DNA of 40,504 bases from a virus. Its lineage: Duplodnaviria > Caudoviricetes. This document shows positions 4,065 through 31,142 of this stretch, piece after piece. Made by a program: the position numbers and the translations under genes. The notes below the pieces were generated by a model. That model was not told the DNA's origin. It searched no databases and was given only the letters and a program-made list of their open reading frames with translations. The stretch covers positions 1-40,504 of the IMG/VR virus record IMGVR_UViG_3300024325_000007; one strand, written 5' to 3'. Numbering within the stretch: position 1 is the first letter of the stretch; each line of letters begins with the position of its first letter.

Positions 4065-4714
4065 TGGTGGTGTGGATTCCCTTGGTTCTTGCAGCCGCGC
4101 AGGGCCTCAACAGCGGGCTCGCGAAGGACGCCGCGTATCGCGCTCAGAAGCGCGCACAAAACCGCTTCGACCGCCAGAATCGCGAGTTCACGAACGCGGA
4201 CCTGATCGCTGGCTACGGCGCGCTGACGATGCACCGTCTCCAGCAGCGCCGCCAGTTCGCGGACACCCTCGATCAACTCACGCGCCAGTCGGGGCAGCGC
4301 ATCGCGACGGCTTCGGTCAGCGCGGCGCAGTCAGGCGTCAAGGGCAATACGGTCGATGCCGTGCTCAACGACTTCAAACGCATTCAGCTTGAGAGCGAGC
4401 AGAACATCCTCGACACGGAAGAGTACGCGCAGGCGCAGTACACGCAGGAAGTCGAGTCGATGCGCAGCCAGGCGCACTCGCGGCTTGTCGCCGGCCAGAT
4501 GGGGCAGATCCAGCGCCCGAACTACATGCAGGAGTTCGTGAACTTCACCACGGCTGCGCTCCAGGCGTTCGACTACGAGCGGCAGTTCAAGAACAAGTAC
4601 CCGACCGAGGGGCTTGGCGGTGGATACGGCAGTGGCCCGTACGGAGCGCACGGTCAGCCGCCGTCGCAGATCGTCTCCCTGCCCGGCCCGTCAGCGCCGG
4701 TGATCCCTTACTGA
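4064..4714 (+). CDS. Internal virion protein (T7 gp14-like ejection protein)
   Basis: ATG 4064 is coupled to the upstream stop. Hydrophobic N-terminus, Ala/Gln-rich helix and SAAQSGVKGNTVD motif typical of gp14-like proteins; synteny fits. Confidence 0.75.
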   Translation: MVVWIPLVLAAAQGLNSGLAKDAAYRAQKRAQNRFDRQNREFTNADLIAGYGALTMHRLQQRRQFADTLDQLTRQSGQRIATASVSAAQSGVKGNTVDAVLNDFKRIQLESEQNILDTEEYAQAQYTQEVESMRSQAHSRLVAGQMGQIQRPNYMQEFVNFTTAALQAFDYERQFKNKYPTEGLGGGYGSGPYGAHGQPPSQIVSLPGPSAPVIPY

Positions 4715-4715
4715 C

Positions 4716-7400
4716 ATGCGCTACCAAGTCCAAGAGCCGGGGGTGGCAGGAGTCGAGCCGCAAGCGCGTCCGACCGATCAGTTCGTGCGCGCGAAGTACA
4801 TCCCGCCCGAGCTGCGCGAGTTGGCCGATCTGCGCCAGTTCAGTCCGACGCTCAACGCATTCTTCCAGGCTGCGCACGAGGACGAGGTGCAGCGCCAGAT
4901 TGCAGCAGGCGAGGCGTCGGTCGCGCTCAAGCGCCCGTTCGGCTCTCCAATCGCGTACACGCCGAAGGAGGAGGCCAACCGCAAGCAGGTCGAGGGGCTC
5001 GTCAACAGAGGCGAACTGGCGCGCTCGAACAGTCCGTACTTCCGTCTCGGGCAAGTCTCGATGGAGGCTCAGCGCGCGGTGCTGAATCTGCAAGATCACG
5101 CGCTCTCTGAGGACACGCTGCGCGCGATGAGCGTGCAGACCGACGAGAACGGGAACCTGTCGTTGAATCACGCCGACATCGACGGCGAGTTGGATCGCAT
5201 GTCCGGGGAGTTTCTCAACATCCCGGCGATGGCGAACCCGTACGCGAAGAAGGTCGCAATCGACATGCTCCAGGGCGTGCGGGCGAAGTTCCACACGGCG
5301 GTTTCGGCGCGGCGTGACCAGGAGGCGCAGCAGTACACCGAAGCTGAAACGTCGCGGCTGCTCGTCGGGCGCATGACCGAGCTGTACGGGCTCAAGCAGG
5401 ACACGACTGACCAGGGGCGGAAGCTGTACGACGACGCATTCATCGGCTTCGATTCCGAGCGCGTCCGCATGACGATCAAGCCCGGCCTCGCCGATCCGAA
5501 GGGCACGTTCCGCAACGCGGCGCGCTCGTTTGCGATGTCGATGGCGGAGTCGGGGCACGGCCAAGAGGGCATCGACTTCATTCGCGAGTTCAAGATCGGC
5601 GACAAGACGACGATTGGAAACGACACGTCGGAGGATGGGGTCAAGTTCAGGCTGGTGCTGGACCAGATGGAAGAGGACTACCAGCACGACGCTGACCGCA
5701 TGGAGGAGCGCAAGGATCGCAAGATTCACAACGAGCGCCGAGACGCGCTGATGGCGTTCGATCAGCAGATTGCGCAGGAAGATTGGGTCGGGAGTCCGCT
5801 TGGAGCAAAGCAGCGTCTTCGCGCCGCCGCCGAGGCGAGCAATTCTCCGTACGAGTCGGACTACATCGACGCGATTGAGAAGCGGTACGCGAACGAACTG
5901 AAAGCCATCGCGCCGGATCCTCGCGTGGACGAGGAAGTGCAGCGTCGGCTCAACAAGGAAGGCCCGGACGCGACGAAGGCCTGGCTCGACACGAAGGCGG
6001 ATGCTGGCGAGATTCCGTGGACGCAGGCGAACGCGCAGAAGGCCGTCGTTGACGACGCGCACGCGAAGTACGCCTCGACGCAGGAAGTGAAGGACATGCG
6101 CTCGTCCATCGGCTCGCTCGTCGGGACGATGACGCAGGGGCGCTCGACGGACGCGCAGCAGGATCTTGAGCGGTTCCGCGACGAGACGATTGACGCGGCG
6201 CTGACTCAGATTCGAGTCGATGTTGGCAAGCTTCCGCCGGAGGATGCTGCCGGTCGTTCTGCTGCGGTGGCGAAGGCTCTCAATGACGCCAAGGCGACGA
6301 TCAAAACGAAGGCTGACGGACTTCGCGAGGCGCAGCGCAACCTGGAGAATGTGCGGCGCGAGCGGAACGAAAAGGGCGTCTCGGTTCGCGGGTTGATCCT
6401 GACGGCTTCGCGCGCAGGCGTGATCGACACGGCGCAGACGGACAAGTTTTTGGCCGACGACGACGCGCTGACGAATCCTGTCTCGTATCTCAAGAGCGCC
6501 GACGTTTCAAACGCCGTGTCCGGTGCGTTCGGCGGCGTCGATCTGTCGCTGATCCGTGCCGGGCTCGTCGCCGACGTTCGCGGGCTGGCGCAGAAAGAGG
6601 TGCGCGACTTCTACCGTGAGAACCGTGGCAAGATGAGCCCGGACGACTTCAATCTCGCGTTCACGACATGGGCGCAGACTGATCTTGCTCAGAAGCTCTT
6701 GAGCGCGGCTGGAACGACCGACGAGAGCCAGGCCGAGGGCGTGACCTCTCAGGGCGAGCGCGTGCGCAAGGGGCTCTCCACGGAGCCCGAGGCCGCGCAG
6801 ATCCGACTCGACCAAGCCGAAGGCCAGGCGCTTCGCCAAGGCATCAAGGCGCTCCAGAGCGGCAATCCCGACGATCTCCGAATCAAGGCGCAGGCGGCGT
6901 GGACGGTTCCCAAGGAACTCGGCGTCAAGCTGCCCGCCGTCAAGATGATGGCCGAGTCGTTCGGCGTGTCGGCTGTCGGCGTGCGCGAGGCGCGGACTGC
7001 TGCGCGCGAAGCGTTCGGGCGAGTGCCGTTCGAGAAAGCCATCGCTGGCGACGAGGCGAAGCAAGTCGAGGCGCGCAAGATCCTGATGAAGACTGGATTC
7101 CCGTCGCCGGAAGAGATGCTGCGCGGGTCGATCCAAGTCGGCACCGAGCAAGTTCCTGTCGATCCCAAGGACGTGAACGCCTGGACCCAATCGTTCTTTC
7201 ACAACCGCGCGAGCTTCGATGCGTGGCTGGCGAAGGAAGGCACCGGCCAACTCGCCGCGCTCGCGAAACGCTATGGCGTTGACGTGAGCAACCCGGCAGA
7301 GTTCAAGGCATGGAAGGCAACGCAGGCTGCGCTGATTGAGGGCGCGTCATTCACTCGGCCGCAGCCCGACTACGTGCCCGCAGGATTCTTCGAGCAATGA
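4716..7400 (+). CDS. Internal virion protein (T7 gp15-like)
   Basis: 894 aa, alpha-helical composition, between the gp14-like and gp16-like genes. Called mainly on synteny. Confidence 0.65.
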   Translation: MRYQVQEPGVAGVEPQARPTDQFVRAKYIPPELRELADLRQFSPTLNAFFQAAHEDEVQRQIAAGEASVALKRPFGSPIAYTPKEEANRKQVEGLVNRGELARSNSPYFRLGQVSMEAQRAVLNLQDHALSEDTLRAMSVQTDENGNLSLNHADIDGELDRMSGEFLNIPAMANPYAKKVAIDMLQGVRAKFHTAVSARRDQEAQQYTEAETSRLLVGRMTELYGLKQDTTDQGRKLYDDAFIGFDSERVRMTIKPGLADPKGTFRNAARSFAMSMAESGHGQEGIDFIREFKIGDKTTIGNDTSEDGVKFRLVLDQMEEDYQHDADRMEERKDRKIHNERRDALMAFDQQIAQEDWVGSPLGAKQRLRAAAEASNSPYESDYIDAIEKRYANELKAIAPDPRVDEEVQRRLNKEGPDATKAWLDTKADAGEIPWTQANAQKAVVDDAHAKYASTQEVKDMRSSIGSLVGTMTQGRSTDAQQDLERFRDETIDAALTQIRVDVGKLPPEDAAGRSAAVAKALNDAKATIKTKADGLREAQRNLENVRRERNEKGVSVRGLILTASRAGVIDTAQTDKFLADDDALTNPVSYLKSADVSNAVSGAFGGVDLSLIRAGLVADVRGLAQKEVRDFYRENRGKMSPDDFNLAFTTWAQTDLAQKLLSAAGTTDESQAEGVTSQGERVRKGLSTEPEAAQIRLDQAEGQALRQGIKALQSGNPDDLRIKAQAAWTVPKELGVKLPAVKMMAESFGVSAVGVREARTAAREAFGRVPFEKAIAGDEAKQVEARKILMKTGFPSPEEMLRGSIQVGTEQVPVDPKDVNAWTQSFFHNRASFDAWLAKEGTGQLAALAKRYGVDVSNPAEFKAWKATQAALIEGASFTRPQPDYVPAGFFEQ

Positions 7401-12285: not shown

Positions 12286-13314
12286 ATGACGACAGTTACC
12301 CCGACGTACAGCGCAGTCCAGTGGGGGCCGCTGCCTCACCAACTTTTCGATTACTACGCCAACCCCACGAGGATCACTGGCGGCAACCCGCTCTTGATCC
12401 TGCGCCACTCGTCCTGGAGTTCAAACAACTACCAGGCATACCGCGATAGCTCGAACACCAACCTCTTCTACTTCTACCGCTGGCTGCTCGCCAATCAGGG
12501 CTCTCAAGAGTCCGCTGCGCACGCCGCCTCGTCTCCCGCTGAATGCTGGGACGTGTGCTGCGTCGAGACGGGCCAGCAGAAGCACGGTAACACCGTGACG
12601 CCGCGCTCGATTGCGATGTACGCGATGGACGCGGTTCGCGACTACCAGGCCGCGATCTGCGCGATTCGTGGGGCGTACCGGACCTACTCGTTCAACCCTG
12701 ACCGCGTGGTGGTCGGCGGCGAGTCTGCCGGTGCGGCGATGGGCGCGATCTCGCAGCTCGCACCGCCGCGTCTTGGTGGCGGAGGCGGCGGCACGTACAT
12801 CGACTCGATCTACAGCGCCAACTCGTTCTCGTCGGTGTGTCGAGGGATCTTCAACTGCGAAGGGCCGGTTGACATTCGCAACTCGAACAACGACAACCCG
12901 CCGACCGGCACGGATTACTTCCACTACTCGCGCATCGGCCCGTGGACCGGGACCAGCATCGTCTCGGCTACGGAGTGGAACGCCATCCCCGCTCGCGTGA
13001 AGGACGCGCTGAGTATGCTCGCGTACTTCGAGCGCGGCGATCTCGCAAACTACTCGAACATGCTGGCGATCTATGCGCGTCGCGGGAATGGCGTCAAGCC
13101 GCTCGGAAACGCAGGCGTGTCGGGATCAGACCCGCACGACAGCATTCAGCTTACGGACCTTGCGCGAGCCGCCGTGACCGCGAGTATGCCGCTGACGGCG
13201 CGGCTGATCGACGCATCCGACTACACGAATGACCTCTATCCCAGCGCGCCGAGCACGGCTTGGCTCAAAACCTGGCGTCCGGCTGCCGACGCGCTGGCGG
13301 GGATGGTCAATTGA
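12286..13314 (+). CDS. Alpha/beta-hydrolase (carboxylesterase-like)
   Basis: FNPDRVVVGGESAGA nucleophile elbow (G-x-S-x-G), preceded by VRDYQAAI; candidate catalytic His in DPHDS. Confidence 0.75.
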   Translation: MTTVTPTYSAVQWGPLPHQLFDYYANPTRITGGNPLLILRHSSWSSNNYQAYRDSSNTNLFYFYRWLLANQGSQESAAHAASSPAECWDVCCVETGQQKHGNTVTPRSIAMYAMDAVRDYQAAICAIRGAYRTYSFNPDRVVVGGESAGAAMGAISQLAPPRLGGGGGGTYIDSIYSANSFSSVCRGIFNCEGPVDIRNSNNDNPPTGTDYFHYSRIGPWTGTSIVSATEWNAIPARVKDALSMLAYFERGDLANYSNMLAIYARRGNGVKPLGNAGVSGSDPHDSIQLTDLARAAVTASMPLTARLIDASDYTNDLYPSAPSTAWLKTWRPAADALAGMVN

Positions 13315-14217: not shown

Positions 14218-14466
14218 ATGACGATCAAACACACACGCGGGCAGTTCATCAGCGACGCCATGATCGAGCACCTCTACGCGAGGCTCACCGAGGGCGCGTG
14301 CGAGCACTGTGGGCAGACGAACATCACGGCCGGAGAACTTGGCATCCTGCGTGACGTGCTCAAGATCAACGGCGTCGAGGGCATCGCGCCGCCGGAAGCG
14401 GCTACGTCGATCAAGTCCACGAAGAAGTACGACTACTCGCAGGACGCTGAGAAGAAGCAAGCCTGA
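14218..14466 (+). CDS. terS: Terminase small subunit (T7 gp18-like)
   Basis: 82 aa directly upstream of and coupled (TGATG) to TerL. ITAGELGILRDVLKINGV resembles the gp18-family 'A.DL..A..FLKDNGI' motif. Confidence 0.7.
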   Translation: MTIKHTRGQFISDAMIEHLYARLTEGACEHCGQTNITAGELGILRDVLKINGVEGIAPPEAATSIKSTKKYDYSQDAEKKQA

Positions 14467-16340
14467 TGCCTCTCCAGAAACAGCGGAAACGGGTTGCGAT
14501 ACCTGCGCGGAATGACGAGTTCCGAGACTTCCGCTGCTTCCTTCAATACGGCTTCGAGGAAACCCTTGACGGCGCAAAGCCGACGCCGTTGCAGTACGAC
14601 ATCGCCGATGCGATGCAGACTGCGGCGTGGAAAGTGGTCTTCGGTGTCCCCCGCCCTGGGTACGGCAAGGCAGCGGAGGAGAACCACATCATCATCGAGG
14701 CTTTGCGCGGCGAGGGCAAATCAGTCATCGCGATCTGGCTCGGGATCTGGTGCCTGTACTGGAAGCCGAAAGAGAACGTTCTCACGCTCTCGGCGTCCGA
14801 GGGCTTTGCTGGTCAGTTTTCGACAGCGATGCTGAGCAACATCTCGAACCTGCCAGAACTCCAATGGATGATGCCCGCCGAAGGCAACCGCGAGTCGGTC
14901 CTCAAGTTCGACGTGGCCGGGATCATTACTCAGCAGCACCCGTCCATGAAGGCGCTTGGGATCGCAGGGCAGCTTGCCGGTTGCCGTGGCGGACTCATCA
15001 TCGTCGATGACGTTGAGACAGATGAGAACTCGCGTACGGATACAGAGCGCGCGAAGAATCTGTCGCGCATGAAGGAGCTTGCGTGGATTCGCAAGAAACC
15101 GCTCTCCGCGACAATCATCCTCGGGACTCCGCACACCGAGGAGTCCATGTACAACATTCTGGCCAAAGACTACGGCTACAAGCGGCTTATCTGGCCTGCA
15201 CGATACCCAGACCACGAATGGATCGAGGCCGTCGCAACGGCCGACAAGAACTCGCAACTTGGCCCGCTCATCGCGAAGCACATCAAGGACGATCCAACGC
15301 TCGTCGGTCCTGTGATGCGCGAGAATCCGCCGACCGAGCCAACGCGATTCAGCCACATCGACTTGCTTGCGGAAGAAGAGCGCGGAGGCCGCTCTGCCTT
15401 CGCGATGCAGATGCTTCTCAGCACCGCGCTCACTGACGAGACGCGCCACCCTCTCAAACTGCGCGACTTGATCGTGACGGACTTTGGATCGGAAGGCGCT
15501 CCGCTCGGACTCCAATGGTCGAACGCGAACGAGCATCAGTTCTCAGAGGTGCCGTGGCTCGGGCTTCCTGGAGACAGGCTCTACCGCCCGTCTATCGTTG
15601 GCGGCGAAATCGGCAAGTTCGAGAATGGGATCATGGCGATTGACCCTGCTGGAATGGGTAAGGATGCGATGGGGCTGTGCATCACGCGCCTCATGGGAGG
15701 ATTCATTTTCGTCTCATACATCGGCGGGCTTTTCGGAGGCTATGGCGAGCACAATCTCAGAAAGGTGTGCATGCTGGCGCAGAAGCACGGCGTCCGCACG
15801 CTGGTCCCCGAGCCGAATCTAGGAGATGGGATGTACACGTCTCTCCTGATCTCAGCCGTGAAGAAGTATTACCCGGATTGTTCCGTCAAAGAACCGCCGC
15901 GCTCGTCTGGCCAGAAGGAATGTCGGATCATCGACACCCTCGAACCGCTGATGAACCAGCATCGCGTGGTTTTTTCCGCACAGGCATTGATCGACGAGAT
16001 GAAGCCGATTGCTGGCGTTCCGGCCGCTTTGGAACTGCCATATCGGTTTCAGCACCAGCTCACGAGAATCACCCGCGAGCGCAACGCGCTCGGGCACGAT
16101 GACCTCGTGGAAGCCTTTTCGATGGGGGTCGAATACTGGATTCCCCACATGGCCGTTACCACCGAGCAGGCTCAGGCCAATGAGCACGCCAAAAGCTTCG
16201 AGGAGCGCGTGCAGGAATGGTATAAGCACGCGGGGCGCTCTTCGTGGGTGGACCCACACAAGCAAAAAATTCGTGTCGGGCACTCGCCTACAACAGCCAA
16301 CTGGATCCAGAGGCAACGCGCACGCGCTGTAAACAGATGA
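14466..16340 (+). CDS. terL: Terminase large subunit (T7 gp19-like)
   Basis: Walker A IIEALRGEGKS, Walker B IIVDDVE, LGTPHTEES, WPARYP; nuclease motifs IDPAGMGKD, QKECRIIDTLEP and HDDLVEA. Confidence 0.95.
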   Translation: MPLQKQRKRVAIPARNDEFRDFRCFLQYGFEETLDGAKPTPLQYDIADAMQTAAWKVVFGVPRPGYGKAAEENHIIIEALRGEGKSVIAIWLGIWCLYWKPKENVLTLSASEGFAGQFSTAMLSNISNLPELQWMMPAEGNRESVLKFDVAGIITQQHPSMKALGIAGQLAGCRGGLIIVDDVETDENSRTDTERAKNLSRMKELAWIRKKPLSATIILGTPHTEESMYNILAKDYGYKRLIWPARYPDHEWIEAVATADKNSQLGPLIAKHIKDDPTLVGPVMRENPPTEPTRFSHIDLLAEEERGGRSAFAMQMLLSTALTDETRHPLKLRDLIVTDFGSEGAPLGLQWSNANEHQFSEVPWLGLPGDRLYRPSIVGGEIGKFENGIMAIDPAGMGKDAMGLCITRLMGGFIFVSYIGGLFGGYGEHNLRKVCMLAQKHGVRTLVPEPNLGDGMYTSLLISAVKKYYPDCSVKEPPRSSGQKECRIIDTLEPLMNQHRVVFSAQALIDEMKPIAGVPAALELPYRFQHQLTRITRERNALGHDDLVEAFSMGVEYWIPHMAVTTEQAQANEHAKSFEERVQEWYKHAGRSSWVDPHKQKIRVGHSPTTANWIQRQRARAVNR

Positions 16341-16831
16341 ACTACGTCGAACTTCTTGAGAGTGTAGGCCCGGCGGATCCGATCACCGGATGCAGAGAGT
16401 GGCTTCGCGGCAAGCAGGGTCGCGGCTACGGGATGGCTACATGGGAGGGACGGCGCGTTCTCGCGCATCGCCTTGCGTACGAACTGGCTCGCGGCCCCAT
16501 TCCTGACGGGCACTATGTCTGCCACAAGTGCGACAACCCAGGATGCGTTGAGCACACGCACCTTTTCACTGGGACGCAGCGCGAGAACATCCACGACTGC
16601 ATCGCCAAGGGGCGCAAGCGCGTAGCTGTCGGAACGGCGTGCGGCAGCGCGAAGCTAACTGACGAGGCGGTTGCATCAATCCTGGCGCGCTACCGTCCCT
16701 GGGACCGCAAGAACTCGCTCCACGTCTTAGGCCGCGAATACGGGGTAGACCACAAGACGGTCTCGCGCATCGTTCGTGGCGAGGGTTGGAAACACATCCA
16801 GCGCGGCAGGGCGCTGCTCAACAGGAGATAG
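16337..16831 (+). CDS. HNH homing endonuclease with C-terminal HTH
   Basis: From ATG 16337: GCREW..GYG..AHRLAYELARGPIP..VCHKCDNPGCV..HLFTGTQRENIHD, then AKLT..REYGVDHKTVSRIVRG. Confidence 0.9.
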   Translation: MNYVELLESVGPADPITGCREWLRGKQGRGYGMATWEGRRVLAHRLAYELARGPIPDGHYVCHKCDNPGCVEHTHLFTGTQRENIHDCIAKGRKRVAVGTACGSAKLTDEAVASILARYRPWDRKNSLHVLGREYGVDHKTVSRIVRGEGWKHIQRGRALLNRR

Positions 16832-16833
16832 GC

Positions 16834-17697
16834 ATGTCATACCGACTCCACGCTTACAACTCGAACAGCGTCATCAAGAACCTCGTTCTCGAAGGTACGA
16901 GCTACACCGGGGCCATCGTGACCTCGGCGGCGACGGAGACGCTCTCCAACATCCTCTTCACGCGCTTCAAGATCCGTGACGACATCGCTGCCGGGGATCG
17001 CTCGCGCTGGGCGTTCAACGTCTCGAACCTCGTGGAGTGCGTGTTTGAGAACGGAGTCGTCGAGGACATCTATTGGGAGCACAACCACTACCCGCACTCG
17101 CCGCGCGGGAACCTCACGTACCGCAACTGCATCGGGCGTCGCGCTGGCGCGCAGGACATCCAGATCGTCTACCGCGACATCGAGAGCGACACGCCGTTCG
17201 GTTGGCAGCAGACGGGCCTGCACCTCATCGAAGGCGGGATGACGGATCACTGTGGCCTGCCTCGCGGCTCGGGGCGCGCAAGCTACGCGATCAGCGCGTT
17301 CGGGCGGCAGGAAGGCGACGGCTCGACTCCGCGCAAGGCTTGGGACTGCCCGCTGCGGATCAAGGATCGCAACATCGTCCACGACCAGATCGGGCAGCCT
17401 GCGGGCTGGCTCTTGAACGGTGCGATCCTGTGCGAGTGGCGACCGCGCTTCGAGCTGCTTGGCGGCGAGGTCAACTACGATGGCACGGCGGACCAGAACC
17501 TCGTTCACTCCTACATGAACGAAGAGGTGATCGTCGATGGGACGAAGCTCCACGGGCAGCGGTACTTCAACATCGACGGCGTGAAGGCTGGGCGCACGAA
17601 ACTGATCGACATTCAGGGCGTGACCGGCGACGTGCTCTTGCGCATCGACGGGGCGAAGATCGGGCCGATGAGCCAAGGATACAGGTGGAGCGCCTGA
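16834..17697 (+). CDS. Putative right-handed beta-helix (pectin lyase-like) protein
   Basis: ATG 16834 after SD AGGAG. Repeated short beta/Asn patterns (NILFTRFKI, CVFENGVVED, NLTYRNC, EVIVDGTKL). Fold is inferred. Confidence 0.5.
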   Translation: MSYRLHAYNSNSVIKNLVLEGTSYTGAIVTSAATETLSNILFTRFKIRDDIAAGDRSRWAFNVSNLVECVFENGVVEDIYWEHNHYPHSPRGNLTYRNCIGRRAGAQDIQIVYRDIESDTPFGWQQTGLHLIEGGMTDHCGLPRGSGRASYAISAFGRQEGDGSTPRKAWDCPLRIKDRNIVHDQIGQPAGWLLNGAILCEWRPRFELLGGEVNYDGTADQNLVHSYMNEEVIVDGTKLHGQRYFNIDGVKAGRTKLIDIQGVTGDVLLRIDGAKIGPMSQGYRWSA

Positions 17698-18065
17698 TGC
17701 AGATTTTAGGCACCGATGGATTCATGCCGCGAACATCGTGCGGGCCGTCGTGGTCATCGACGCTCATCCTCGTTCACGAGCTTTCCAACCTCGCCATCTT
17801 TCTGTGCTACATGCTGATCCCGTTCGGCTGCGTCGGGCTGTACCGGCGTATTTCGACGGGAGGGAGCGTGCGCAATCCGAAGCTCGGTGTCGTGCTTTCG
17901 TTCGGGTTCATCCTGACGTGCGGGCTGACGCATCTGATGGACCGACTCATGTTCCAGTGGCCTGCATACCGCCTCGGCGGGCTCGTGCTGGCTGTCTGCG
18001 CAGCGTTCTCAATCGCCACGGTGGCGTGGATGACCCAGGCTCTTGGAGATCAGCATGGCCGATGA
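17697..18065 (+). CDS. Stand-alone ethylene-receptor (ETR1-type) ethylene/Cu-binding transmembrane domain
   Basis: 122 aa from ATG 17697 (TGATG coupling). FMP..C...W, SNLAIFLCYMLIP, FILTCGLTHL and WPAYRL..AAFSIAT align without gaps to ETR1 TM1 (SDFFIAIAYFSIP), TM2 (FIVLCGATHL) and TM3 (TAVVSCATA). Three TM segments, no output domain. Confidence 0.85.
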   Translation: MQILGTDGFMPRTSCGPSWSSTLILVHELSNLAIFLCYMLIPFGCVGLYRRISTGGSVRNPKLGVVLSFGFILTCGLTHLMDRLMFQWPAYRLGGLVLAVCAAFSIATVAWMTQALGDQHGR

Positions 18066-18306
18066 GAAAAAGCGGATTTTCGACTCCACCACGCTCGTCC
18101 CAATCGGAGTCCTCGTTACGGTTGCGGGGGGCTTGCTGGGCGGGGCCGTGTGGCTCAACACCAAATTCCTCGAACTGGATTTCAGGCTCCAGAGCATCGA
18201 GAGAAAGGTAGCTGACCCGTGGAACATCGACAGAATGAGAGCGTGGCGGGATCTCCTGGAGGTGTCGAACCCGAGCGTCAAGGTGCCGCCAGTCGCACGC
18301 GACTGA
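18055..18306 (+). CDS. Single-TM plus coiled-coil membrane protein (holin/lysis-accessory candidate)
   Basis: ATG 18055 after GGAG. TM segment LVPIGVLVTVAGGLLGGAVWL followed by a heptad segment. Confidence 0.55.
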   Translation: MADEKKRIFDSTTLVPIGVLVTVAGGLLGGAVWLNTKFLELDFRLQSIERKVADPWNIDRMRAWRDLLEVSNPSVKVPPVARD

Positions 18307-18620
18307 ATGGTTCGCAGCGGTTCACTCTCTGGACGACGGGTGCGGCACTCAGCCTCGTCATCGTCCTATTCATCGTGCTCGACGCACGGATCTTGTCTTT
18401 GGCGCGGTCGGTCGAGCGGCTGGCGCAGCACATCGAGTCGATGGAGCAAGTTGAGATCGAAGAAATGAGCACCACCTACATTGCACTCGTGAACGGCACC
18501 GCGACCCCGCATACCGTCACCGACACCCAGAACGCGGGCGAGTCGGACGACGACTTCCAGGATCGCCACAACAAGCACATCGCGTACGACCGTGCGAACG
18601 GCTACCCCATCTACCACTGA
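18219..18620 (+). CDS. Single-TM membrane protein (start uncertain, possibly near 18303)
   Basis: TM segment LWTTGAALSLVIVLFIVL plus coiled coil; fills the gap between its neighbours. Confidence 0.5.
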   Translation: MEHRQNESVAGSPGGVEPERQGAASRTRLNGSQRFTLWTTGAALSLVIVLFIVLDARILSLARSVERLAQHIESMEQVEIEEMSTTYIALVNGTATPHTVTDTQNAGESDDDFQDRHNKHIAYDRANGYPIYH

Positions 18621-18621
18621 C

Positions 18622-19095
18622 ATGAACCAAAACCAGAAGATCCAAGCGACCGTCTCGGGCCTCGTGGCGTTCGTCGCGGCGGTGCTGATTGCGGCGGCGG
18701 TGTGCTCGTGCGCCGTGCTCGTGCAGAGCGCGGAGGTGGCTGGAGCGACAGTGGCCGGAGCCGGGATTGGATTCGTCGCTGGCGGTCCTCCTGGGGCTGT
18801 CGCAGGCGGCGGGATCGGTGCCGCGACGGCTCACGCGCTCATCGAGGCCAGCGAGAGCCAGAAGCGACTGGACGCCTACCAGAGCGCCGATAAGCCGAGC
18901 ACGTCGCATTCGCCGCCACCGAGCGGGCCTCCGAGCTTCCTCGGGATCGCGTGGTATTGGTGGGCGCTCATCCTGTACGCGCTCTACCGCAACCGCGCGC
19001 ACCTGATCGACATGCTCTCCAAGAGTGGCGGGCGCTGGGACGCGATTCTCCGTGCTGTCGGATGGCGCACGCATCGGAGCAAGGGGGCGGCCTGA
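18622..19095 (+). CDS. Glycine-zipper putative lipoprotein with C-terminal TM (unimolecular-spanin-like topology)
   Basis: Signal-like N-terminus ending AAAVCSC, Gly-zipper GAGIGFVAGGPPGAVAGGGIGAA, Pro/Ser linker, aromatic TM FLGIAWYWWALILYALY. Confidence 0.55.
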   Translation: MNQNQKIQATVSGLVAFVAAVLIAAAVCSCAVLVQSAEVAGATVAGAGIGFVAGGPPGAVAGGGIGAATAHALIEASESQKRLDAYQSADKPSTSHSPPPSGPPSFLGIAWYWWALILYALYRNRAHLIDMLSKSGGRWDAILRAVGWRTHRSKGAA

Positions 19096-19412
19096 TGTGC
19101 GTCTTTTCAATGGTCGGCGATCACTACGGCGAGAAGTGGGGCCATCTTCCGTACATCAACCCGCAGCCGCAGCCTGGAATCCATGTCACGCCTGGAACGG
19201 TAACGGTGTTCCCGGCTCTTGCAACGCAGGCGGAGCTTGAAGCGCTGCGCCGCGAGGTGCTCGACATGAAGGAACTGCTCAAGCGTGCGATCAAGTACGA
19301 CACCGAGCACGGTCAGCCCGGTTGCGAGAACGAGGACAAGGTCAAGCTGCTGCGCCGCGTCGCGGACCTCGTCGGGGTCAGCCTCGAAGACGTGCTCGGG
19401 AGCAAGCCGTGA
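19095..19412 (+). CDS. Conserved phage hypothetical protein (MCVxSMVGDHY...YD...QPxCE..K type)
   Basis: TGATG coupling; motif pattern recurrent in phage hypothetical proteins. Confidence 0.6.
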   Translation: MCVFSMVGDHYGEKWGHLPYINPQPQPGIHVTPGTVTVFPALATQAELEALRREVLDMKELLKRAIKYDTEHGQPGCENEDKVKLLRRVADLVGVSLEDVLGSKP

Positions 19413-19507
19413 TCCTCCGCACCGACCGCGACCGCTGGCTCTTCTGCGGTGCTGGGCTCTTCGGCGTCGGGGCCGCGCTTGGATTCATCGCCGGGTTGCT
19501 CTGGTAG
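19409..19507 (+). CDS. Small hydrophobic peptide (32 aa)
   Basis: GTGA overlap with the upstream stop; one TM segment WLFCGAGLFGVGAALGFIAGLLW. Confidence 0.4.
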   Translation: MILRTDRDRWLFCGAGLFGVGAALGFIAGLLW

Positions 19508-19558
19508 CCGATCCTGAGCGGCTACTTGCGGGCCGTCTCCCTGGGGTCGGGAGGCGGC
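19504..19558. terminator. Twin hairpins at the convergence of the late (+) and middle (-) operons
   Basis: GTAGCCG/CGGCTAC (19504-19525) and GCCGTCTCCC/GGGAGGCGGC (19532-19558) lie at the junction of the convergent stop codons. No clear U-tract. Confidence 0.5.
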
Positions 19559-19563
19559 TCGCG

Positions 19564-19767
19564 CTAGTCTCGGATCAGCGGGATCTTGGTCTCGTCCCAA
19601 ACGATTGATCTCGTCGGCCCGCACTCCTTGATTGGCTCAGACCAACGCTCGCCGCTCGTGGGAACGTCGCCGACCAAGAAGAACTCGACCCACTGTTGAG
19701 GCCCGAGGCGCATCCGGTAGACGCCCTGGATGTCGGCTGGCTCGGTCGATGTCCAGTAGCCGGTCAT
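19564..19767 (-). CDS. Hypothetical protein
   Basis: ATG 19767 overlaps the upstream stop (ATGA); Trp-rich small phage protein. Confidence 0.5.
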   Translation of the reverse strand: MTGYWTSTEPADIQGVYRMRLGPQQWVEFFLVGDVPTSGERWSEPIKECGPTRSIVWDETKIPLIRD

Positions 19768-20465
19768 GCCTTCACCGTCCCGGCGCGCAGCATCTTGCAC
19801 TCTTCCTCGCATTCGCGGCGGCGCGTGTTGAGATCCATCACCTGCAAGTCTTGTGCGGTAATCGCCGCGTCGCGTGTCGCAATAGTGCGCCGCATGGCTT
19901 CGCGTTCGTCCACGAGGTCGCGGATGATCGTCGCGCGCTTCTCGACTTCGGTATTCGCCTCCGCGAGCGCGCGTTCGGCGGCGTCCTTCTGCTCGATGGC
20001 TCGGCGCAAGTCGCACATGACTGACTCGGCCAGCACGTCGAGCGGGAGCATCGTGCAGCCGCAGCCCTGGTCTGTTTCGGGTGTATGGCCCTTCTGCAAG
20101 ATTGCCTCCGCCTTCCCGCGCAGCTCGCGCTCCTGAGAGAGCTGGGCTTCGAGCGCGGCGATCTTGGCCTGATAGTCCAGGTGTCGAATCCGCATCGTCT
20201 CCGCGCCCTCGAAGGCCGGAATGCCCGCCCCCTCTCGCCCGCCAGCGAGCGCGCGGAGAATCTCAGGTGGCGCGTCTCTGCCTGGGGCACGTGCGTTGTC
20301 CGAACGTCCGCGAGTCACGAGCTGCGCGCGGGCAATCGCCGCGTCCCAGGAAATCGCACTGTGCGGACTCCACCATGAAGCGGCGAAGATCGCGCAAGCA
20401 ATAACGGCCTCGTTCGGAGTCAGTGTCTCGCTCATCGCGCGCGGGTCGGGGGTCGGCATGGTCAT
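19764..20465 (-). CDS. Hypothetical coiled-coil protein
   Basis: ATG 20465 is coupled to the upstream stop; long heptad-rich C-terminal half. Confidence 0.55.
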   Translation of the reverse strand: MTMPTPDPRAMSETLTPNEAVIACAIFAASWWSPHSAISWDAAIARAQLVTRGRSDNARAPGRDAPPEILRALAGGREGAGIPAFEGAETMRIRHLDYQAKIAALEAQLSQERELRGKAEAILQKGHTPETDQGCGCTMLPLDVLAESVMCDLRRAIEQKDAAERALAEANTEVEKRATIIRDLVDEREAMRRTIATRDAAITAQDLQVMDLNTRRRECEEECKMLRAGTVKA

Positions 20466-23292: not shown

Positions 23293-24072
23293 CTAGTGAT
23301 CCGTCGAGCGCGTGCGCTTCGCCTTGCCCTTGTCGTCGCCAGCGAAGAACTCGACCGGGTTCTCGCGCTTCGCCTCTTCCTCGGCGATCTGGCGGTCCAG
23401 CGCGGCGTTGTCGAGCACGGGCGTTGCCTCAACTTCGCGCACGACGGGCTGCTCCTGCTCAGCCTGCTGCATCATCCCGCGCAGCGACTTGACCGGCGAT
23501 GGCACGTTGCTGTTGACGACTTCCGCCTCGACGATCTCCTTTGCCTCGGTCTCGTCGTAGAGCCCGGAGAACGAGAACGCAAGTCGCGCGCACTGGATCA
23601 TCGCGCGGTGGCGCAGCATCCGAAGCGGAGCCTTCGCCCACGGCTGCGACGTGCCCTTGCACTCTTCCATGAACTCGGTGACGACGAGCGGATGCGCGCG
23701 ATCCTTGCGGTGGATGATGCACGTCACGGCGTAGACCTCGCCGCTCTGCTGGTCCTTCTCGTAGCGGAAGTTCATGCCGTTGAACTGCGGGTGCTGATTG
23801 ATGATCGACGCCCAGCCATCGACGGAGATCATCGGCACGATGCCGCCGCCCTTGGACGGGAAGGCGTACACCTGCTTGGTGAATGGGTTGAGCCCGTATT
23901 CCTTGGCGACGATACAGAAGGCCGCGAGTTGCTCGTTCGTGGCCTGCCCGTTGGGGAACACCGTCGCCTTGACGGTCTGCGCGAACGCAACCGCGTCCAT
24001 CTGGTACGACTCGGCCAGCGCTCCAACGGCCCCAATCGGCTTCCGCTCTGTGACTGCTTGCTGCTGATTCAT
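23293..24072 (-). CDS. bet: Bet/RecT-family single-strand annealing protein
   Basis: EQLAAFCIVAKEYGLNPFTKQVYAFP.KGGGIVPMISVDGW..IINQHPQFNG, TCIIHRKDR.HP..VTEFM.EC, PW...P.RMLRHRAMIQCARLAF: lambda Bet-like. Confidence 0.92.
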   Translation of the reverse strand: MNQQQAVTERKPIGAVGALAESYQMDAVAFAQTVKATVFPNGQATNEQLAAFCIVAKEYGLNPFTKQVYAFPSKGGGIVPMISVDGWASIINQHPQFNGMNFRYEKDQQSGEVYAVTCIIHRKDRAHPLVVTEFMEECKGTSQPWAKAPLRMLRHRAMIQCARLAFSFSGLYDETEAKEIVEAEVVNSNVPSPVKSLRGMMQQAEQEQPVVREVEATPVLDNAALDRQIAEEEAKRENPVEFFAGDDKGKAKRTRSTDH

Positions 24073-24941
24073 TCGTCTTCTCCGGTGCGAAGCACCCTAG
24101 ATTCCACGGTTCTCGCCGGACGCGCCTTGTGTTGGGCGACCTGGGACTTCCAGGTTGCCCGCGCGTTTGGCGTTACGAGAGTGGTCGCGTCTTGCATCGC
24201 GGCCTTGATGACTGCCTCGCAGGCGTCCTTGTGAAGTTCGAGAGCTTTGATCTGGCGCTTGAAGTCGATTAGTTCGAGCAGCGCAATCGAAGCGTTGTCC
24301 TTCGGCCCTGCGGTGATCGTGCGCCCGCAATCCTTCGGCCACATGCGCTTGAGCACGTCGAGATCGTCCGCGCTCGTCGGGGGCGGCACGTCGGCCTTGA
24401 CGTGATGCTCGATGAAGTTGAGCAGTTGCTCCATGAGCCACGCGAGGAACACGTCGTCGCGGTCCATGCGCGGCGTCTCAAGGTGATTCCCGCCGACAAT
24501 TGCCGCGAAGTACCCGACCTCGAATCCAGTGATCCGCAGGTACGTTTGCAGTTGCACCTGATAGCCCAACGGCGCGGTGATCGCCTCGCTGTCGGCCTGC
24601 TTCCAGTCCTTCGCAGCGAAGCCGTGCGTGTTCTTACATTCGAGCACGCCGGGCTTGCCGCTCGGAAGCAATAGCAGGCGATCTGGCGAGCCCGCGAGCC
24701 ACGGGAACTCCTTGTCCACCATGAGCCCCGGAGAATCGACCACGGCGATTCCAGTGCGCTTGCGGAACCATGCGGCAGCGGCGGGCTCCATGAACGTCCC
24801 AGCCTCGACGCGCTCGATGTCGTCGAGATTCTCGGGCTGGACTTTCCCAGTAAGGATCGCCCAAGCCTCGTAGGGCGACTTGAAGCCGTGGCCGACGATG
24901 TTCGCCGCCATCGTGCCGCCTATGCGCAGTTGTTCGCTCAT
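24069..24941 (-). CDS. YqaJ-like phage exonuclease (partner of Bet)
   Basis: RIGG, FKSPYEAW, G..MEP, LAGSPDR, VLECKNT, YQVQLQTY: PD-(D/E)xK YqaJ motifs. Adjacent to bet. Confidence 0.9.
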   Translation of the reverse strand: MSEQLRIGGTMAANIVGHGFKSPYEAWAILTGKVQPENLDDIERVEAGTFMEPAAAAWFRKRTGIAVVDSPGLMVDKEFPWLAGSPDRLLLLPSGKPGVLECKNTHGFAAKDWKQADSEAITAPLGYQVQLQTYLRITGFEVGYFAAIVGGNHLETPRMDRDDVFLAWLMEQLLNFIEHHVKADVPPPTSADDLDVLKRMWPKDCGRTITAGPKDNASIALLELIDFKRQIKALELHKDACEAVIKAAMQDATTLVTPNARATWKSQVAQHKARPARTVESRVLRTGEDE

Positions 24942-25147
24942 TCGTGGCTCTCCGCAAGTTCGCAAAGCTCATCGTAGTAGCGGTCGATCAACCGCTCTTC
25001 GATCCAGTCCGGCAGCCGCTCGTCGCCGACTGAGATCGACTCGACTTCAAGCTCGCTCGGATCGGGACCGCCAGAAGGCGTCGAGCCGCTGTACCAGTCG
25101 GCTTCGACGTAGAGCCCCCGCCATGAGAACGAGACGTGCTTGGTCAT
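24938..25147 (-). CDS. Small acidic hypothetical protein
   Basis: ATGA coupling at both ends; acidic composition. Confidence 0.55.
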   Translation of the reverse strand: MTKHVSFSWRGLYVEADWYSGSTPSGGPDPSELEVESISVGDERLPDWIEERLIDRYYDELCELAESHE

Positions 25148-25404
25148 CGGTAGCACCAATCCTTCGCCATCTTCCATGCAAGATCGGAGACTTGCTCGCG
25201 CCAATTGTCGTCGTACTCAAGAACGTCCAGCGTCGCCTTCGGAATCTCCACGATCACTGGTTCGCCGTGGTCGCAGAGAGTCTCGATGCGCGCCGAATGA
25301 ACCTTGAACTCTCCGCAATCGCCGCCGTACTCGAACATGCGCACTTCGCAGTCGATCACGAGACCGCCGTACTCAACGCGAACGTCGATGGCTACCTCGC
25401 TCAC
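25144..25404 (-). CDS. Small acidic hypothetical protein
   Basis: GTGA/ATGA coupling; acidic composition. Confidence 0.55.
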   Translation of the reverse strand: MSEVAIDVRVEYGGLVIDCEVRMFEYGGDCGEFKVHSARIETLCDHGEPVIVEIPKATLDVLEYDDNWREQVSDLAWKMAKDWCYR

Positions 25405-25625
25405 TTGCGCACCCTCCCGGTCAAGATCCAGTCCACGCTCACTTTCAGCACGCGACTCAGCGGCTCAAGTTGCCGCGACGTAGGAAAGCGCGCACCCGAC
25501 TCGATCCGATTCCAGGCCGTGCGGTCGATGCCAGCTTGCAGCGCAGCATCGGCCTGCGTCAGCCCTAGTGCCTCGCGCTTGCGCTGAACGCGGACGCCGG
25601 GCGAGTCTTTCGGTTGCGTCTTCAT
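25401..25625 (-). CDS. XRE/Cro-like HTH transcriptional regulator
   Basis: REALGLTQADAALQAGIDRTAWNRIESG.R.P....L..L...L.VSVDWILTG, a classic HTH_3 pattern. Start at 25625 or 25634. Confidence 0.9.
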   Translation of the reverse strand: MKTQPKDSPGVRVQRKREALGLTQADAALQAGIDRTAWNRIESGARFPTSRQLEPLSRVLKVSVDWILTGRVRK

Positions 25626-25632
25626 GTGTGGC

Positions 25633-25661
25633 ATCCTGGCAACGTGATTTCAGCGTGTCAA
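25633..25661 (-). promoter_or_regulatory. Sigma70-like promoter for the HTH-exo-bet operon (probably leaderless)
   Basis: On the - strand: TTGACA-17 nt-(TG.)CAGGAT, then 7 nt to ATG 25625. Confidence 0.6.
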
Positions 25662-25710
25662 GCGGGCACTACGGATTTCCCGTCGCCGCAACCCCATCCC
25701 ATCCCTAGCC

Positions 25711-26223
25711 TTACGCGCCCTCTGCGCGCAAGATCGCCGGGCAGTACCGGATGCGAGCGCACTCCGCGAGGAACAGCGCGTCGGCAATCGGCCAGTGCTT
25801 GACCTTGGATAGATCCTTCGCAGCGGCGGGCCAGCGTTGGATCGCGGCCTTGACGGTTGCTTCCTTCACGGCGCGCGTGCGAGCTGCGCGTTCCTGGTCT
25901 TTCTCCTTGGTCGGCAGCGAAAGCCCGACTTCCTTGCGCCACGCCTGCGGCTGCACGAGCGCGTAGCCGATGGAGAGCGCGGCAAGGATTCCCTGCACCT
26001 CTCCGAAGCGTTGGCCGAACGTGAACATCGAAGTCACGCCTTGGCCGGGCATTGCGGAGACGCGCTCGATCACGGCGAACGCTGGGGCTGAGCCCTTGAT
26101 CTCCCGTGCCAGTTCGGGCAGCGACATGCCCTGAAACAGCGCGCTTCCGCAGTAGCCGCCTTGCTCGTTCACGAACGCGAGTGCGCCGGATGAGCCGGGG
26201 TCGATGCCGAGGTAGAGGCTCAC
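25711..26223 (-). CDS. ruvC: RuvC-like Holliday junction resolvase
   Basis: YLGIDPG.SGALA, AVIERV.AMPGQGVTSMFTFG, V.PQAWRK, ADAL.LA. Confidence 0.88.
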   Translation of the reverse strand: MSLYLGIDPGSSGALAFVNEQGGYCGSALFQGMSLPELAREIKGSAPAFAVIERVSAMPGQGVTSMFTFGQRFGEVQGILAALSIGYALVQPQAWRKEVGLSLPTKEKDQERAARTRAVKEATVKAAIQRWPAAAKDLSKVKHWPIADALFLAECARIRYCPAILRAEGA

Positions 26224-26579
26224 CGCGCCCCCACAATCCGCTCGCGTTCCCCGCGCAGCGTGCCGAGTTCCTGCTTGAGTTCGGCCATGCGGGCGTCGAT
26301 CTGCGCGAGGCGGGCCTTCGCTGGCATCTGGCGCAGGATCGCGTTGACCTCGGGCGGAAAGCCGTTCCCCGTGCTCACCTCCACGTCGAGCCCTCTCGGC
26401 TTCGGCGGCGGGTCAAGCGCGGCAAGCTCGCGGCACTCCAGCGAAGCAAGACGGTTGAGGACTTTAGGCAACTGCTCGCCGTAGTGATCGGCGACCGCTT
26501 CGAGGCGTTCAAGGCGGAGAATGTTCTCGCTGAGCAGCCTCGCGTGCGCGGCCAGCGTCTCTGAGATTGAGTCGGTCAC
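26220..26579 (-). CDS. Hypothetical coiled-coil protein
   Basis: GTG 26579 is coupled to the upstream stop. Confidence 0.5.
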   Translation of the reverse strand: MTDSISETLAAHARLLSENILRLERLEAVADHYGEQLPKVLNRLASLECRELAALDPPPKPRGLDVEVSTGNGFPPEVNAILRQMPAKARLAQIDARMAELKQELGTLRGERERIVGAR

Positions 26580-26917
26580 GGCTTGGCTCCTTCTCTCGCC
26601 CAAGCGGGCTCTCCGTCTTTTTGATCCTTCGGCCACACGATGTCGTTGTTTTCGTCCAAGGAAAATCCAGTGTCCACGAGGCACCACTTCGTAGCGGTTC
26701 CGCTCCAATACGAGCCGCCGCCGTATTTGCTGTAGATTTCGACCGGCACAACTTGGTCGTCAGCTTCAACGCGATTGGTGTCCGAAGAGAATTGCAGTTT
26801 CGTCCACTCGTCACGTTCGGTCGTGAGGTCGTGGTATGGCAGATCGGAAGTGCCGTGGTACTTGCCGTAACGGATCTCGCCGTCAGGGAAGCGCACGAGC
26901 ATCAGCGCGGAACTCAC
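26576..26917 (-). CDS. Hypothetical phage protein
   Basis: Coupled ORF; VRFPDG.I.YG.Y.GTSD ... PVEIYS.YGGGSYW.G.A pattern. Confidence 0.6.
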   Translation of the reverse strand: MSSALMLVRFPDGEIRYGKYHGTSDLPYHDLTTERDEWTKLQFSSDTNRVEADDQVVPVEIYSKYGGGSYWSGTATKWCLVDTGFSLDENNDIVWPKDQKDGEPAWAREGAKP

Positions 26918-27105
26918 GCCCCCACCGCCTTGCGATCCGCCGCTCTCTCCAGCTCTTGCAGCCTGCGGTGCATCGCGCGGACAAGCTCGTTCGTCGCGGA
27001 GAGTTCGCGCTCAAGCGCCAGGAGTTGCTTCAAGTAGCCTGCTCTGCCCTCCTCGGGCGTCAGGTCGCGGATCTTGTCGATTGCCTTGGATCGTTCGGCG
27101 TTCAT
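26914..27105 (-). CDS. Small hypothetical protein
   Basis: ATGA overlap with the dnaB stop. Confidence 0.5.
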   Translation of the reverse strand: MNAERSKAIDKIRDLTPEEGRAGYLKQLLALERELSATNELVRAMHRRLQELERAADRKAVGA

Positions 27106-28385
27106 CGGATTTCCTCTGCTTTCCAGGTTGTCGGTAGTTCGATTCGGAATTGCGCGCGCAGGAACGCGAGCGCCACGTCACAGGTGCGGCCTCCGCGATT
27201 CTTGGCGATGATCGCGGTGATCGTCGATCCGTCGCGCTCCCCGTGGAGCAGGATCACGACATCGGCCTCGTTCTCGATTGCGCCGGATTCGCGCAGGTGC
27301 GCCAGCGTCGGGCGCTGCCCCTCGGCTTCGCGGTTGAGCTGCGCGAGCGCGATGATCGGGATGGAAAGCTCTTTCGAGAGCTGCTTGAGCGAGCGAAACA
27401 CCTCGGTCACTTCGAGCTGACGCTCCCCGGCCTTGAAGCCTTGCACGCGAACCTGCTGCGCGTAGTCGATGACGGCGAGTTCCAGCCCGTGCTTGCGCTT
27501 GTGGCGGCGCAAGATCGCGCGCACCTTGGCGAACGTGATGTAGTTCTCGGTGACGTAGCGCAGTCGCCCGTGCGCTCGAAGCTCTCGCGCAGCCACCTCC
27601 AGCTTCCCGAGGTCTTCCTCGGAAACGTTCTTGGACGAGACAAGTCCTCCGTCCAGCTCGCCGAACATGCAAAGCGTCCGGTCGCCGATCTCGTCCTCCG
27701 GCATCTCAAGCTCGACCAGCGTGGCCCGGTGCCCGTTCTTGGCGGCGTTCACCACGAGTTGCTGCCCGAACGCCGACTTTCCAAGGCTCGGCCTGCCCGC
27801 GATGACGTAGAGCTTCCCCGGCCTCAGCCCGTGGAGCACACGGTCCAGGTCCGAGAGCCCGGTACTGAGCCCTTCCTGCGTCTCGCGCTCGCGCTGGCGG
27901 GCTACGGCGTCCTGGAGCACATCTCCGGCGTCTCTGTCGCTGGTTGCGACGCTGCCTCTGTCAGCCAATGCCGTGAGGTCTGACGAGAGCTGGCCGAGGA
28001 AACCCTCCAGCGCGTCCTCGGTCGCTGGCGTCTCGCACAGGTCAGCTAATGCGGCCTGGAGGGCAGCGGTGAGGCGGCGCTTGACTGCGGCGGCGCGGAC
28101 GAGTCTTGCGTGGTGCCCGGCGTGGGCGCTGGAGACGACCGGGGCGGCGTACTCGAATGCGGCCTGCCCCCAGGCTGCGCGCTTGGCCGGATCGTTCGGG
28201 GCGAGGATCTGACTCAGGCTCGAAAGCGTCCAGGCGCGGCGCGCGTCGTCTTCCTGGCAGCACGCCTTGAACAGCTTGCGCGGCGCGTCCTCCTCGAAGT
28301 CGTCGGCCTCCACGAGCGGGCGCACGTCGCCGAGGCACTCCGGGAATTGGAGCACCGCGCCGATGAGGTCTGTTTCGGCGCTCAT
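27102..28385 (-). CDS. dnaB: Replicative DNA helicase DnaB
   Basis: TGLSDLD, IAGRPSLGKS (Walker A), LEM, IDYAQ, LKQLSKEL.IPIIALAQLNR, LRESGAIE.EADVVILL, AKNRGG. Confidence 0.95.
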   Translation of the reverse strand: MSAETDLIGAVLQFPECLGDVRPLVEADDFEEDAPRKLFKACCQEDDARRAWTLSSLSQILAPNDPAKRAAWGQAAFEYAAPVVSSAHAGHHARLVRAAAVKRRLTAALQAALADLCETPATEDALEGFLGQLSSDLTALADRGSVATSDRDAGDVLQDAVARQRERETQEGLSTGLSDLDRVLHGLRPGKLYVIAGRPSLGKSAFGQQLVVNAAKNGHRATLVELEMPEDEIGDRTLCMFGELDGGLVSSKNVSEEDLGKLEVAARELRAHGRLRYVTENYITFAKVRAILRRHKRKHGLELAVIDYAQQVRVQGFKAGERQLEVTEVFRSLKQLSKELSIPIIALAQLNREAEGQRPTLAHLRESGAIENEADVVILLHGERDGSTITAIIAKNRGGRTCDVALAFLRAQFRIELPTTWKAEEIR

Positions 28386-31077: not shown

Positions 31078-31083
31078 GCCACC

Positions 31084-31111
31084 AGTATGCTTGCCCGGGC
31101 AAGCAATGCAA
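31084..31111 (-). promoter_or_regulatory. Transposase promoter with an 18-bp palindromic operator
   Basis: - strand TTGCAT-16 nt-CATACT-6 nt-ATG; perfect palindrome TGCTTGCCCGGGCAAGCA at 31088-31105. Confidence 0.7.
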
Positions 31112-31142
31112 GCAGAAAGCTAGGGATTTTGAGCCTAATCGG

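Follow-up and report, generated by a model that had tools for sequence, protein, structure and literature searches.

A stand-alone ethylene-receptor-type membrane domain encoded in the late membrane gene module of a tailed phage

The closest described relatives of the protein reported here are the ethylene receptors, whose ETR1_N domain is known in bacteria with many outputs (PMC7700396, the available part of which does not mention phages). Ethylene binding by ETR1 requires seven residues (PMC11819568, PMC6682694), and D35, C75, H79, and K98 of the receptor AzoEtr1 have been equated with D25, C65, H69, and K91 of ETR1 (PMC11819568). The single leader cysteine of bacterial receptors may join the dimer (PMC6682694). 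Replacement of Asp25 by Asn, which is the residue at this position in 3.67% of 1,221 domains, reduces copper binding in vitro to a minimum but still allows signalling in plants (PMC10266040); the same substitution lowers the affinity for ethylene 100-fold (PMC11971883). Lys91 relays the signal to helix 3, and a non-basic residue in its place results in lower binding and function (PMC10266040). With respect to phage lysis, the best-known control of its timing from outside is T4 lysis inhibition by superinfection (PMC11413866). Judged from titles and the openings of abstracts, a targeted and mainly open-access literature search returned no description of phage ETR1_N proteins, in agreement with the first-pass annotation of this locus, which knew of no such phage system (reviews and supplements may list stand-alone bacterial forms); it also returned no chemically gated lysis timing. 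In our assessment, the ETR1_N gene described below is genuine and encodes a form of this known domain, not described before within that search, that belongs to a late membrane module of a phage.

The window, by which we mean the whole stretch of 40,504 nucleotides that was analysed, is a 40.5-kb virus record estimated by CheckV to be 72% complete. Genes for T7-type nozzle, internal virion, and terminase proteins lie on its + strand, and genes for RecT, YqaJ, and DnaB on its - strand. Because recombination, repressor-like, and excisionase-like genes (within 23293-29320 (-), 25401-25634 (-), and 38688-39113 (+), together with DnaB) stand beside T7-type virion genes, the virus is probably a temperate podophage. 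We note that the nozzle protein carries RCC1 repeats (4-3633 (+); PF25675, PF13540), that an IS1-family transposase gene adjoins a gene for an SDH/ClpP-like protease (30172-32652 (-)), and that the product of a late gene at 12286-13314 (+) resembles alpha/beta-hydrolases weakly and at a level below the cut-off (PF20434, E 0.003). Comparison of the terminase large subunit (terL) found no sister phage. One DNA run, from a soil metagenome, contains the stretch in identical form, although the record may have been assembled from that run; no RNA run was among those listed as carrying it.

The ETR1_N gene is the 3' end of a longer frame (17073..18065) and runs from an ATG at 17697 to a TGA at 18063-18065 (Table 1). 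The stop codon of the upstream 287-aa gene overlaps its start in the sequence TGATG (17695-17699), a GGAG lies ten bases 5' of this start, and the next ATG (18055) falls inside the gene, giving an 11-base overlap with its stop. The three-helix ORF of 122 aa, TGATG-coupled and overlapping the next start, is thus present as the first-pass annotation had described it, as judged from ORF coordinates, hydropathy, and the structural model. GC3 of its frame is 0.76-0.77, similar to that of terL (0.74), whereas the two alternative frames give 0.58 and 0.49; its codon use is phage-like. We found no sigma-70-like promoter in 16300-20200. The same annotation had placed the gene after terL and directly before holin- and spanin-like genes: two genes intervene after terL, and the downstream genes do encode membrane proteins by hydropathy, but none of them matched a holin or spanin family in Pfam, PHROG, or NCBIfam.

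Table 1. Coordinates of the ETR1_N gene and its neighbours in the window
Feature	Position	Strand	Description	Basis
Terminase large subunit, T7-type	14466..16340	+	Marks the late operon	PF22530 E 5e-28; phrog_38 E 3e-76
HNH endonuclease	16337..16831	+	Between terL and the membrane genes	PF13392 E 7e-13
287-aa soluble protein, no known family	16834..17697	+	TGATG-coupled to the ETR1_N gene	
ETR1_N gene	17697..18065	+	122 aa, three membrane helices	PF25487, AlphaFold2 model, AzoEtr1 alignment
83-aa single-helix + coiled-coil protein	18055..18306	+	Recurring partner type, holin-like by shape alone	Hydropathy
~105-aa single-helix protein + small C-terminal domain	18303..18620	+		Hydropathy
157-aa protein	18622..19095	+	N-terminal helix that ends in an imperfect lipobox, then a glycine-rich segment and an aromatic, hydrophobic segment at the C terminus	Sequence

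The product of the gene immediately downstream (18055..18306) had no match in Pfam, PHROG, or NCBIfam, and its look-alikes are viral hypothetical clusters (score 0.92-0.94); complex prediction for this product with the ETR1_N protein gave no answer (score 0.00), which speaks neither for nor against a contact. The start of the following gene is uncertain (CTG at 18303 or a GTG upstream), and its product is weakly like that of the second gene after ETR1_N in L004, a phage-like metagenome locus (E 0.004, one comparison). A small unnamed domain seemingly recurs behind a membrane helix in the window (18303-18620 (+)) and in L004 (6309-6596 and 6600-6890 (+)), seemingly in two copies in the last L004 gene (6600-6890); that one comparison was the sole one to reach weak significance. 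The third downstream product matched no family in Pfam, PHROG, or NCBIfam and, judged by its sequence against the lipobox consensus and spanin criteria in PMC6139136, may faintly resemble a one-piece spanin.

The ETR1_N protein matches the Pfam profile PF25487 (ETR1_N) with an E value of 8e-16 and 58.5 bits (curated cut-off 27), a significant match that backs the earlier assignment to the ethylene-binding domains and spans residues 23-115 of the protein and positions 2-90 of 97 of the profile; PHROG and NCBIfam gave no match. The same protein also occurs on a 47-kb contig. Hydropathy delineates three hydrophobic stretches (residues 23-41, 63-81, and 93-111), and the AlphaFold2 model (pLDDT 93) has helices at 21-53, 61-84, and 91-117. 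The stop codon lies five residues past helix 3, and there is no C-terminal output domain (GAF, PAS, or kinase). A fold search with the model returned nothing from the PDB under E 0.38 and nothing among viral models under E 0.93, and sequence searches of the PDB with the protein gave nothing significant; no solved ETR1_N domain structure was found.

To place individual residues, we used as reference the 525-aa AzoEtr1 from an Azospirillum brasilense Sp7 plasmid, the length and D35/C75/H79/K98 of which agree with PMC11819568. The two proteins are 29% identical with 5 gap positions in 105, so that the gap-free alignment to ETR1 claimed in the first-pass annotation holds inside the helices and not elsewhere. 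We take the residues needed in ETR1 to include Tyr32, Ile35, Pro36, and Ile62, and these were mapped onto the window protein through AzoEtr1. The aligned residues are N31, Y38, I41, P42, I72, C75, H79, and L98, with the predicted copper ligands C75 and H79 bearing the same numbers as in AzoEtr1. Six of the seven ethylene-binding residues have kept equivalents, the exception being Asp25, which is replaced by Asn (N31); L98 stands in place of Lys91, and the Asp25-Lys91 relay is lost. The first-pass annotation had read these positions correctly from the letters, including the equivalents of Cys65/His69 and Tyr32/Ile35/Pro36, the Asn and Leu substitutions, and the leader cysteine; the latter is C15, kept in 148/150 of the top matches of a motif-free profile search. 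The His-to-Lys spacing is 19, as in AzoEtr1 (22 in Arabidopsis). Going by the alignment, the window protein has the metal ligands but no relay. Because Asp25Asn cuts affinity 100-fold and a non-basic residue at Lys91 reduces ETR1 binding, an ethylene cue is doubtful, and high-affinity ethylene sensing by the window copy is unlikely; since Asp25Asn leaves minimal copper binding in ETR1 in vitro, the window copy may bind copper weakly.

We then considered whether short forms of the domain constitute a family. Of 1974 candidates from a word-indexed search, 49 proved to be relatives of similar length, and the ten best of these have 121-138 aa; ten short relatives, at 46-66% identity or near it, terminate just past helix 3. 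A cluster look-up for 10 relatives returned neither names nor hosts. Among longer proteins, 21 were found, all annotated as signalling proteins, with a best identity of 41-42%. A profile search with neither motif nor length filter returned 7363 matches, and the 11 of these under E 1e-30 (two of them query rows) are all 119-157 aa long, which argues that the window gene is no stray fragment. Invariance of Cys and His in the motif-requiring searches is circular because those searches demanded the motif; the motif-free top 150 of the 7363 alone test it. Split by tail length, these comprise 32 short, 28 mid (tail of 31-110 aa), and 90 long forms, in counts that ignore kinship and in which a few short rows resemble cut-off kinases, blurring the contrast with the long forms. 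In this set, Cys is kept in 30/32 short, 28/28 mid, and 90/90 long forms (the two losses are P0117 and P0177) and His in 31/32, 28/28, and 90/90, respectively; the CGxTH ligands that the first-pass annotation had singled out are therefore conserved among the short homologues. Asp is kept in 18/32 short, 14/28 mid, and 89/90 long forms, with Asn in 10 short and 10 mid forms, and Lys/Arg is kept in 15/32, 16/28, and 88/90. As far as alignment can tell, short forms retain the metal site while the kinase relay drifts.

Further evidence on the distribution of short forms comes from the ESM Atlas, which lists ETR1_N clusters of short proteins (119-130 aa) with 113, 56, and 96 members; in two of the three, Uroviricota is the commonest taxon. 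Among 50,697 GenBank phage records, no ETR1_N match was found (best E 0.6 in one search, none in another), and scanning virus contigs for peptide patterns derived from the window protein or from its clade brought up no true relative; one pattern match in virus contigs, L002, was a chance frame. A clade-specific pattern hit four stretches in GTDB genomes, namely three long receptor-type ORFs and one chance match. A quick tree of 129 domains places the window protein within a ten-member short-form clade (support 90) and excludes this clade from the branch with all kinases (support 88). Other viral short forms group among AzoEtr1-like kinases in the quick tree, and an AU test that used 48 of the 129 rows did not reject a single origin of short forms (p 0.07). 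Some short database entries are kinase fragments, as with P0013, which pairs with the L017 kinase in the tree. The ETR1_N short forms make up a widespread family of phage proteins that lacks annotation and is not represented in PHROGs.

The stand-alone homologues whose search the first-pass annotation had proposed were found in virus contigs: a motif scan yielded 27 stretches, of which 5 were chance matches, 7 encoded whole kinases (4 of them distinct), and 15 carried short forms. Of these short forms 14 are distinct, and all of them exceed the Pfam cut-off. From metagenomes, the best 80 of 222 stretches were kept, and, apart from the contig of the window itself, these included the phage-like stand-alone copy L004 and the short form L059, whose contig resembles a chromosome, the remainder being mostly long receptor-type ORFs or cut by contig ends. 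The 14 viral loci, the window, L004, and L059 make up the 17 short loci compared; the closest relatives of the window protein (P0002-P0015) are not among them. In 10/17 short loci a small gene for a membrane helix and coiled coil lies directly downstream, a shape seen in 32/538 background ORFs (6%) and in 0/4 viral kinase loci; several of the loci are related (L102/L103, L059/L097), for which the significance figures make no correction. The script had flagged 11/17, and L116 was removed, its neighbour being a PAS gene. L086 and L113 were near misses for a downstream single-helix coiled-coil gene, and L096, L100, and L114 have neither a membrane partner nor a PAS gene downstream. The partners of L059 and L097 are 46% identical, and the downstream protein of L095, alone among the loci, matches a named family ('hol-like', E 3e-5). 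No sequence similarity could be detected between the proteins encoded downstream in the window and in L004, so that the partner is defined by its shape and is not a single family. Overall, a link of the short forms to a late membrane cassette is supported.

A link to lysis itself is a separate matter. Neither an endolysin nor a holin family was found among the 68 ORFs scanned in the window, a record that is 72% complete, and neither the ETR1_N protein nor its three downstream neighbours had a holin match in PHROG, Pfam, or NCBIfam, although the protein, being small, three-helical, and encoded in the late operon, has the topology of a holin. An endolysin lies within 3 kb in 5/14 viral short loci (contig ends truncate two of the short loci), and four enzyme types are represented: a muramidase (L095), a peptidase type (L102), a GH108 (L113), and lysozymes (L086, split by a stop, and L116, a weak match). 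The order in L086 is ETR1_N, membrane gene, lysozyme. Control loci had an endolysin nearby in 2/10 cases (0/4 kinase loci and 2/6 chance matches; Fisher p 0.65 versus 5/14), and endolysin proximity of the short forms is not enriched over controls in this sample. The check for conserved linkage to lysis genes that the first-pass annotation had proposed for such homologues supports a membrane cassette (10/17) and showed no enrichment for endolysins in this sample. Since the window yielded neither an endolysin nor a match to a holin family, and since proximity did not exceed that of the controls, the link of the ETR1_N gene to lysis is only suggestive, if plausible.

Several features of the other loci deserve mention in their own right. 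Stand-alone PAS genes are coupled by a GTGA overlap behind short ETR1_N genes in L085 (6317-6643 (+)) and L116 (8324-8779 (+)), that of L116 lying three genes before the lysozyme-like gene. The lysozyme-type endolysin of L086 (6851-7279 (-)), two genes after ETR1_N, is interrupted by one TAG codon. L004 is the sole phage-like close relative with context among the best 80 of 222; its ETR1_N gene (5639-6016 (+)) follows a 1618-aa gene and has, after a coupled start, an in-frame TGA at codon 7, which is a sequencing error or a nonsense allele. In L059 (3233-4184 (+)), an ETR1_N gene with a coiled coil is accompanied by a partner, and the other genes of the contig look chromosomal by eye. The ETR1_N gene and partner of L105 lie between the terminase and a portal fused to an Acb1 anti-CBASS domain (4599-7283 (-); PF23474, E 1e-32). 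Whole ETR1_N histidine kinases are encoded in L084 (6840-8279 (-)), L087 (7131-8264 (-)), L089 (6252-7421 (+)), and L101 (7164-8279 (-)); all four keep the Asp, Cys, His, and Lys, a receiver gene lies directly behind in L087 and L089, and these appear to be phage-borne ethylene-receptor-type two-component systems.

Because the short relatives keep the copper ligands, often lose the relay, and usually precede a small membrane gene, control of a late membrane step is likely. Our leading explanation, to which we give a little less than an even chance, is that the ETR1_N protein is an accessory or regulator of the adjacent small membrane proteins, with a predicted copper site, probably acting in lysis. 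This is a weaker form of one reading in the first-pass annotation, a gas- or copper-gated holin or antiholin; it is the form that fits best, and the ethylene cue is the doubtful part. From knowledge of the family, the protein would sit N-out/C-in with the basic loop 49-62 inside, as a dimer with Cu(I) on C75/H79, and it may have originated as a sensor kinase minus its output. Lacking both tail and relay, it presumably cannot drive a kinase and would most likely act on its neighbour through helix contacts, made sideways in the host inner membrane with the co-translated product (LysF1b-like or holin-like). Such contacts could restrain or tune hole formation by the neighbour, and occupancy by a metal or small ligand would alter this brake.

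Other explanations have to be weighed against such an accessory role. ETR1_N kinases are common in bacteria (7363 profile matches; 222 metagenome stretches), and the free domain might serve as a decoy or jammer that pairs with those of the host or takes their copper, silencing or locking signalling with motility, biofilm, or capsule as outputs; its place among membrane genes would then be incidental, as in L096 and L100, which lie outside any late or membrane cassette, and the relaxed Asp-Lys relay would suit a non-signalling partner. We regard this as unlikely, as none of the kinases found shares more than 42% identity with the window clade, which forms a kinase-free branch (support 88-90, quick tree), and a late coupled site beside membrane genes (10/17) would not be expected of a host-takeover gene. 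The sensor might alternatively still signal, as a split receptor, through a separate helix-plus-coiled-coil, PAS, or receiver protein to regulators and not to a holin. The PAS genes right behind the short forms of L085 and L116, the whole kinases in four distinct virus loci, two with an adjoining receiver gene, and the coiled-coil tail on many short forms (the 28 mid rows) point this way; however, no PAS, kinase, or receiver gene occurs among the 68 window ORFs scanned (26 in Pfam), and a protein that stops five residues past helix 3 with both relay residues lost makes split signalling quite unlikely for the window.

The fold could also have been co-opted as an ordinary class I-type holin, with the copper site a relic. 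Three helices in an N-out, C-in arrangement are typical of class I holins (PMC9636201), and size and late position fit, but Cys and His stay fixed across 30-66% identity while other positions drift, unlike a relic; because selection holds the metal ligands, a relic site in a plain holin is argued against. The protein also has no PHROG holin match and no viral fold match under E 0.9, and L095, L102, and L113 carry other two-helix holin-like genes alongside (by eye), and we consider a plain holin improbable. Retention of the ligand pair after loss of the output would likewise accord with metal handling, that is, a membrane copper sink or buffer with no tie to lysis or signalling. A single site per monomer would make a poor sink, though, and the coupled neighbour is left unexplained, so this is a very improbable role. 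Finally, a recently captured dead piece of a host kinase gene, a risk that the first-pass annotation had itself raised, might be suspected from the stop at codon 7 in L004 and from the short database proteins that are kinase fragments (P0013 with the L017 kinase). We find it hardly credible: ten short relatives terminate just past helix 3, the gene has phage-like codon use and is coupled at both ends, and the existence of a short-protein family together with the absence of any close, let alone near-identical, kinase donor among the sequences searched counters it.

Going beyond an accessory role, one may picture a chemically gated lysis clock, in which soil and water tailed phages have freed the ETR1 copper sensor from its kinase, perhaps by repeated capture, and wired it to a holin-like partner, the cue being a gas, another small copper ligand, or copper itself. 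We think this full version rather unlikely. If the ETR1_N family does gate lysis, it would couple phage release to the chemistry of soil or roots. Should it have no such role, the window protein is still a naturally occurring minimal form (122 aa) of a domain with no solved structure in our searches, and the natural Asp25/Lys91 variants among the short forms test the current ethylene-binding model.

How does the window protein compare with known systems? It shares three helices, an N-out and C-in arrangement, and similar size with class I holins such as lambda S105 (PMC9636201), from which it differs in its conserved intramembrane Cys/His pair and in having no holin family match. The mycobacteriophage pair LysF1a and LysF1b likewise consists of a multi-helix protein and, encoded after it, a protein that has one N-terminal helix, and normal lysis timing needs both (PMC13056207); compared by architecture, LysF1a differs in having two helices and no sensor ancestry, and its genes adjoin two endolysins, which the window lacks. 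The closest model for the proposed mechanism is T4 holin T with antiholin RI, in which a membrane-anchored regulator delays a single-helix holin on an outside cue (PMC11413866); there, superinfection serves as the cue and is sensed in the periplasm, with no metal site, and no sequence likeness was found. With the domains of ETR1 (Arabidopsis), SynEtr1 (Synechocystis), and AzoEtr1 (Azospirillum), the window protein has in common the three membrane helices, the Cys and His, the Tyr/Ile/Pro/Ile positions, and the leader Cys. Unlike these receptors, it has no GAF, PAS, or kinase region, carries the Asn and Leu substitutions, and is encoded by a late gene of a phage, next to a separate gene for a membrane protein.
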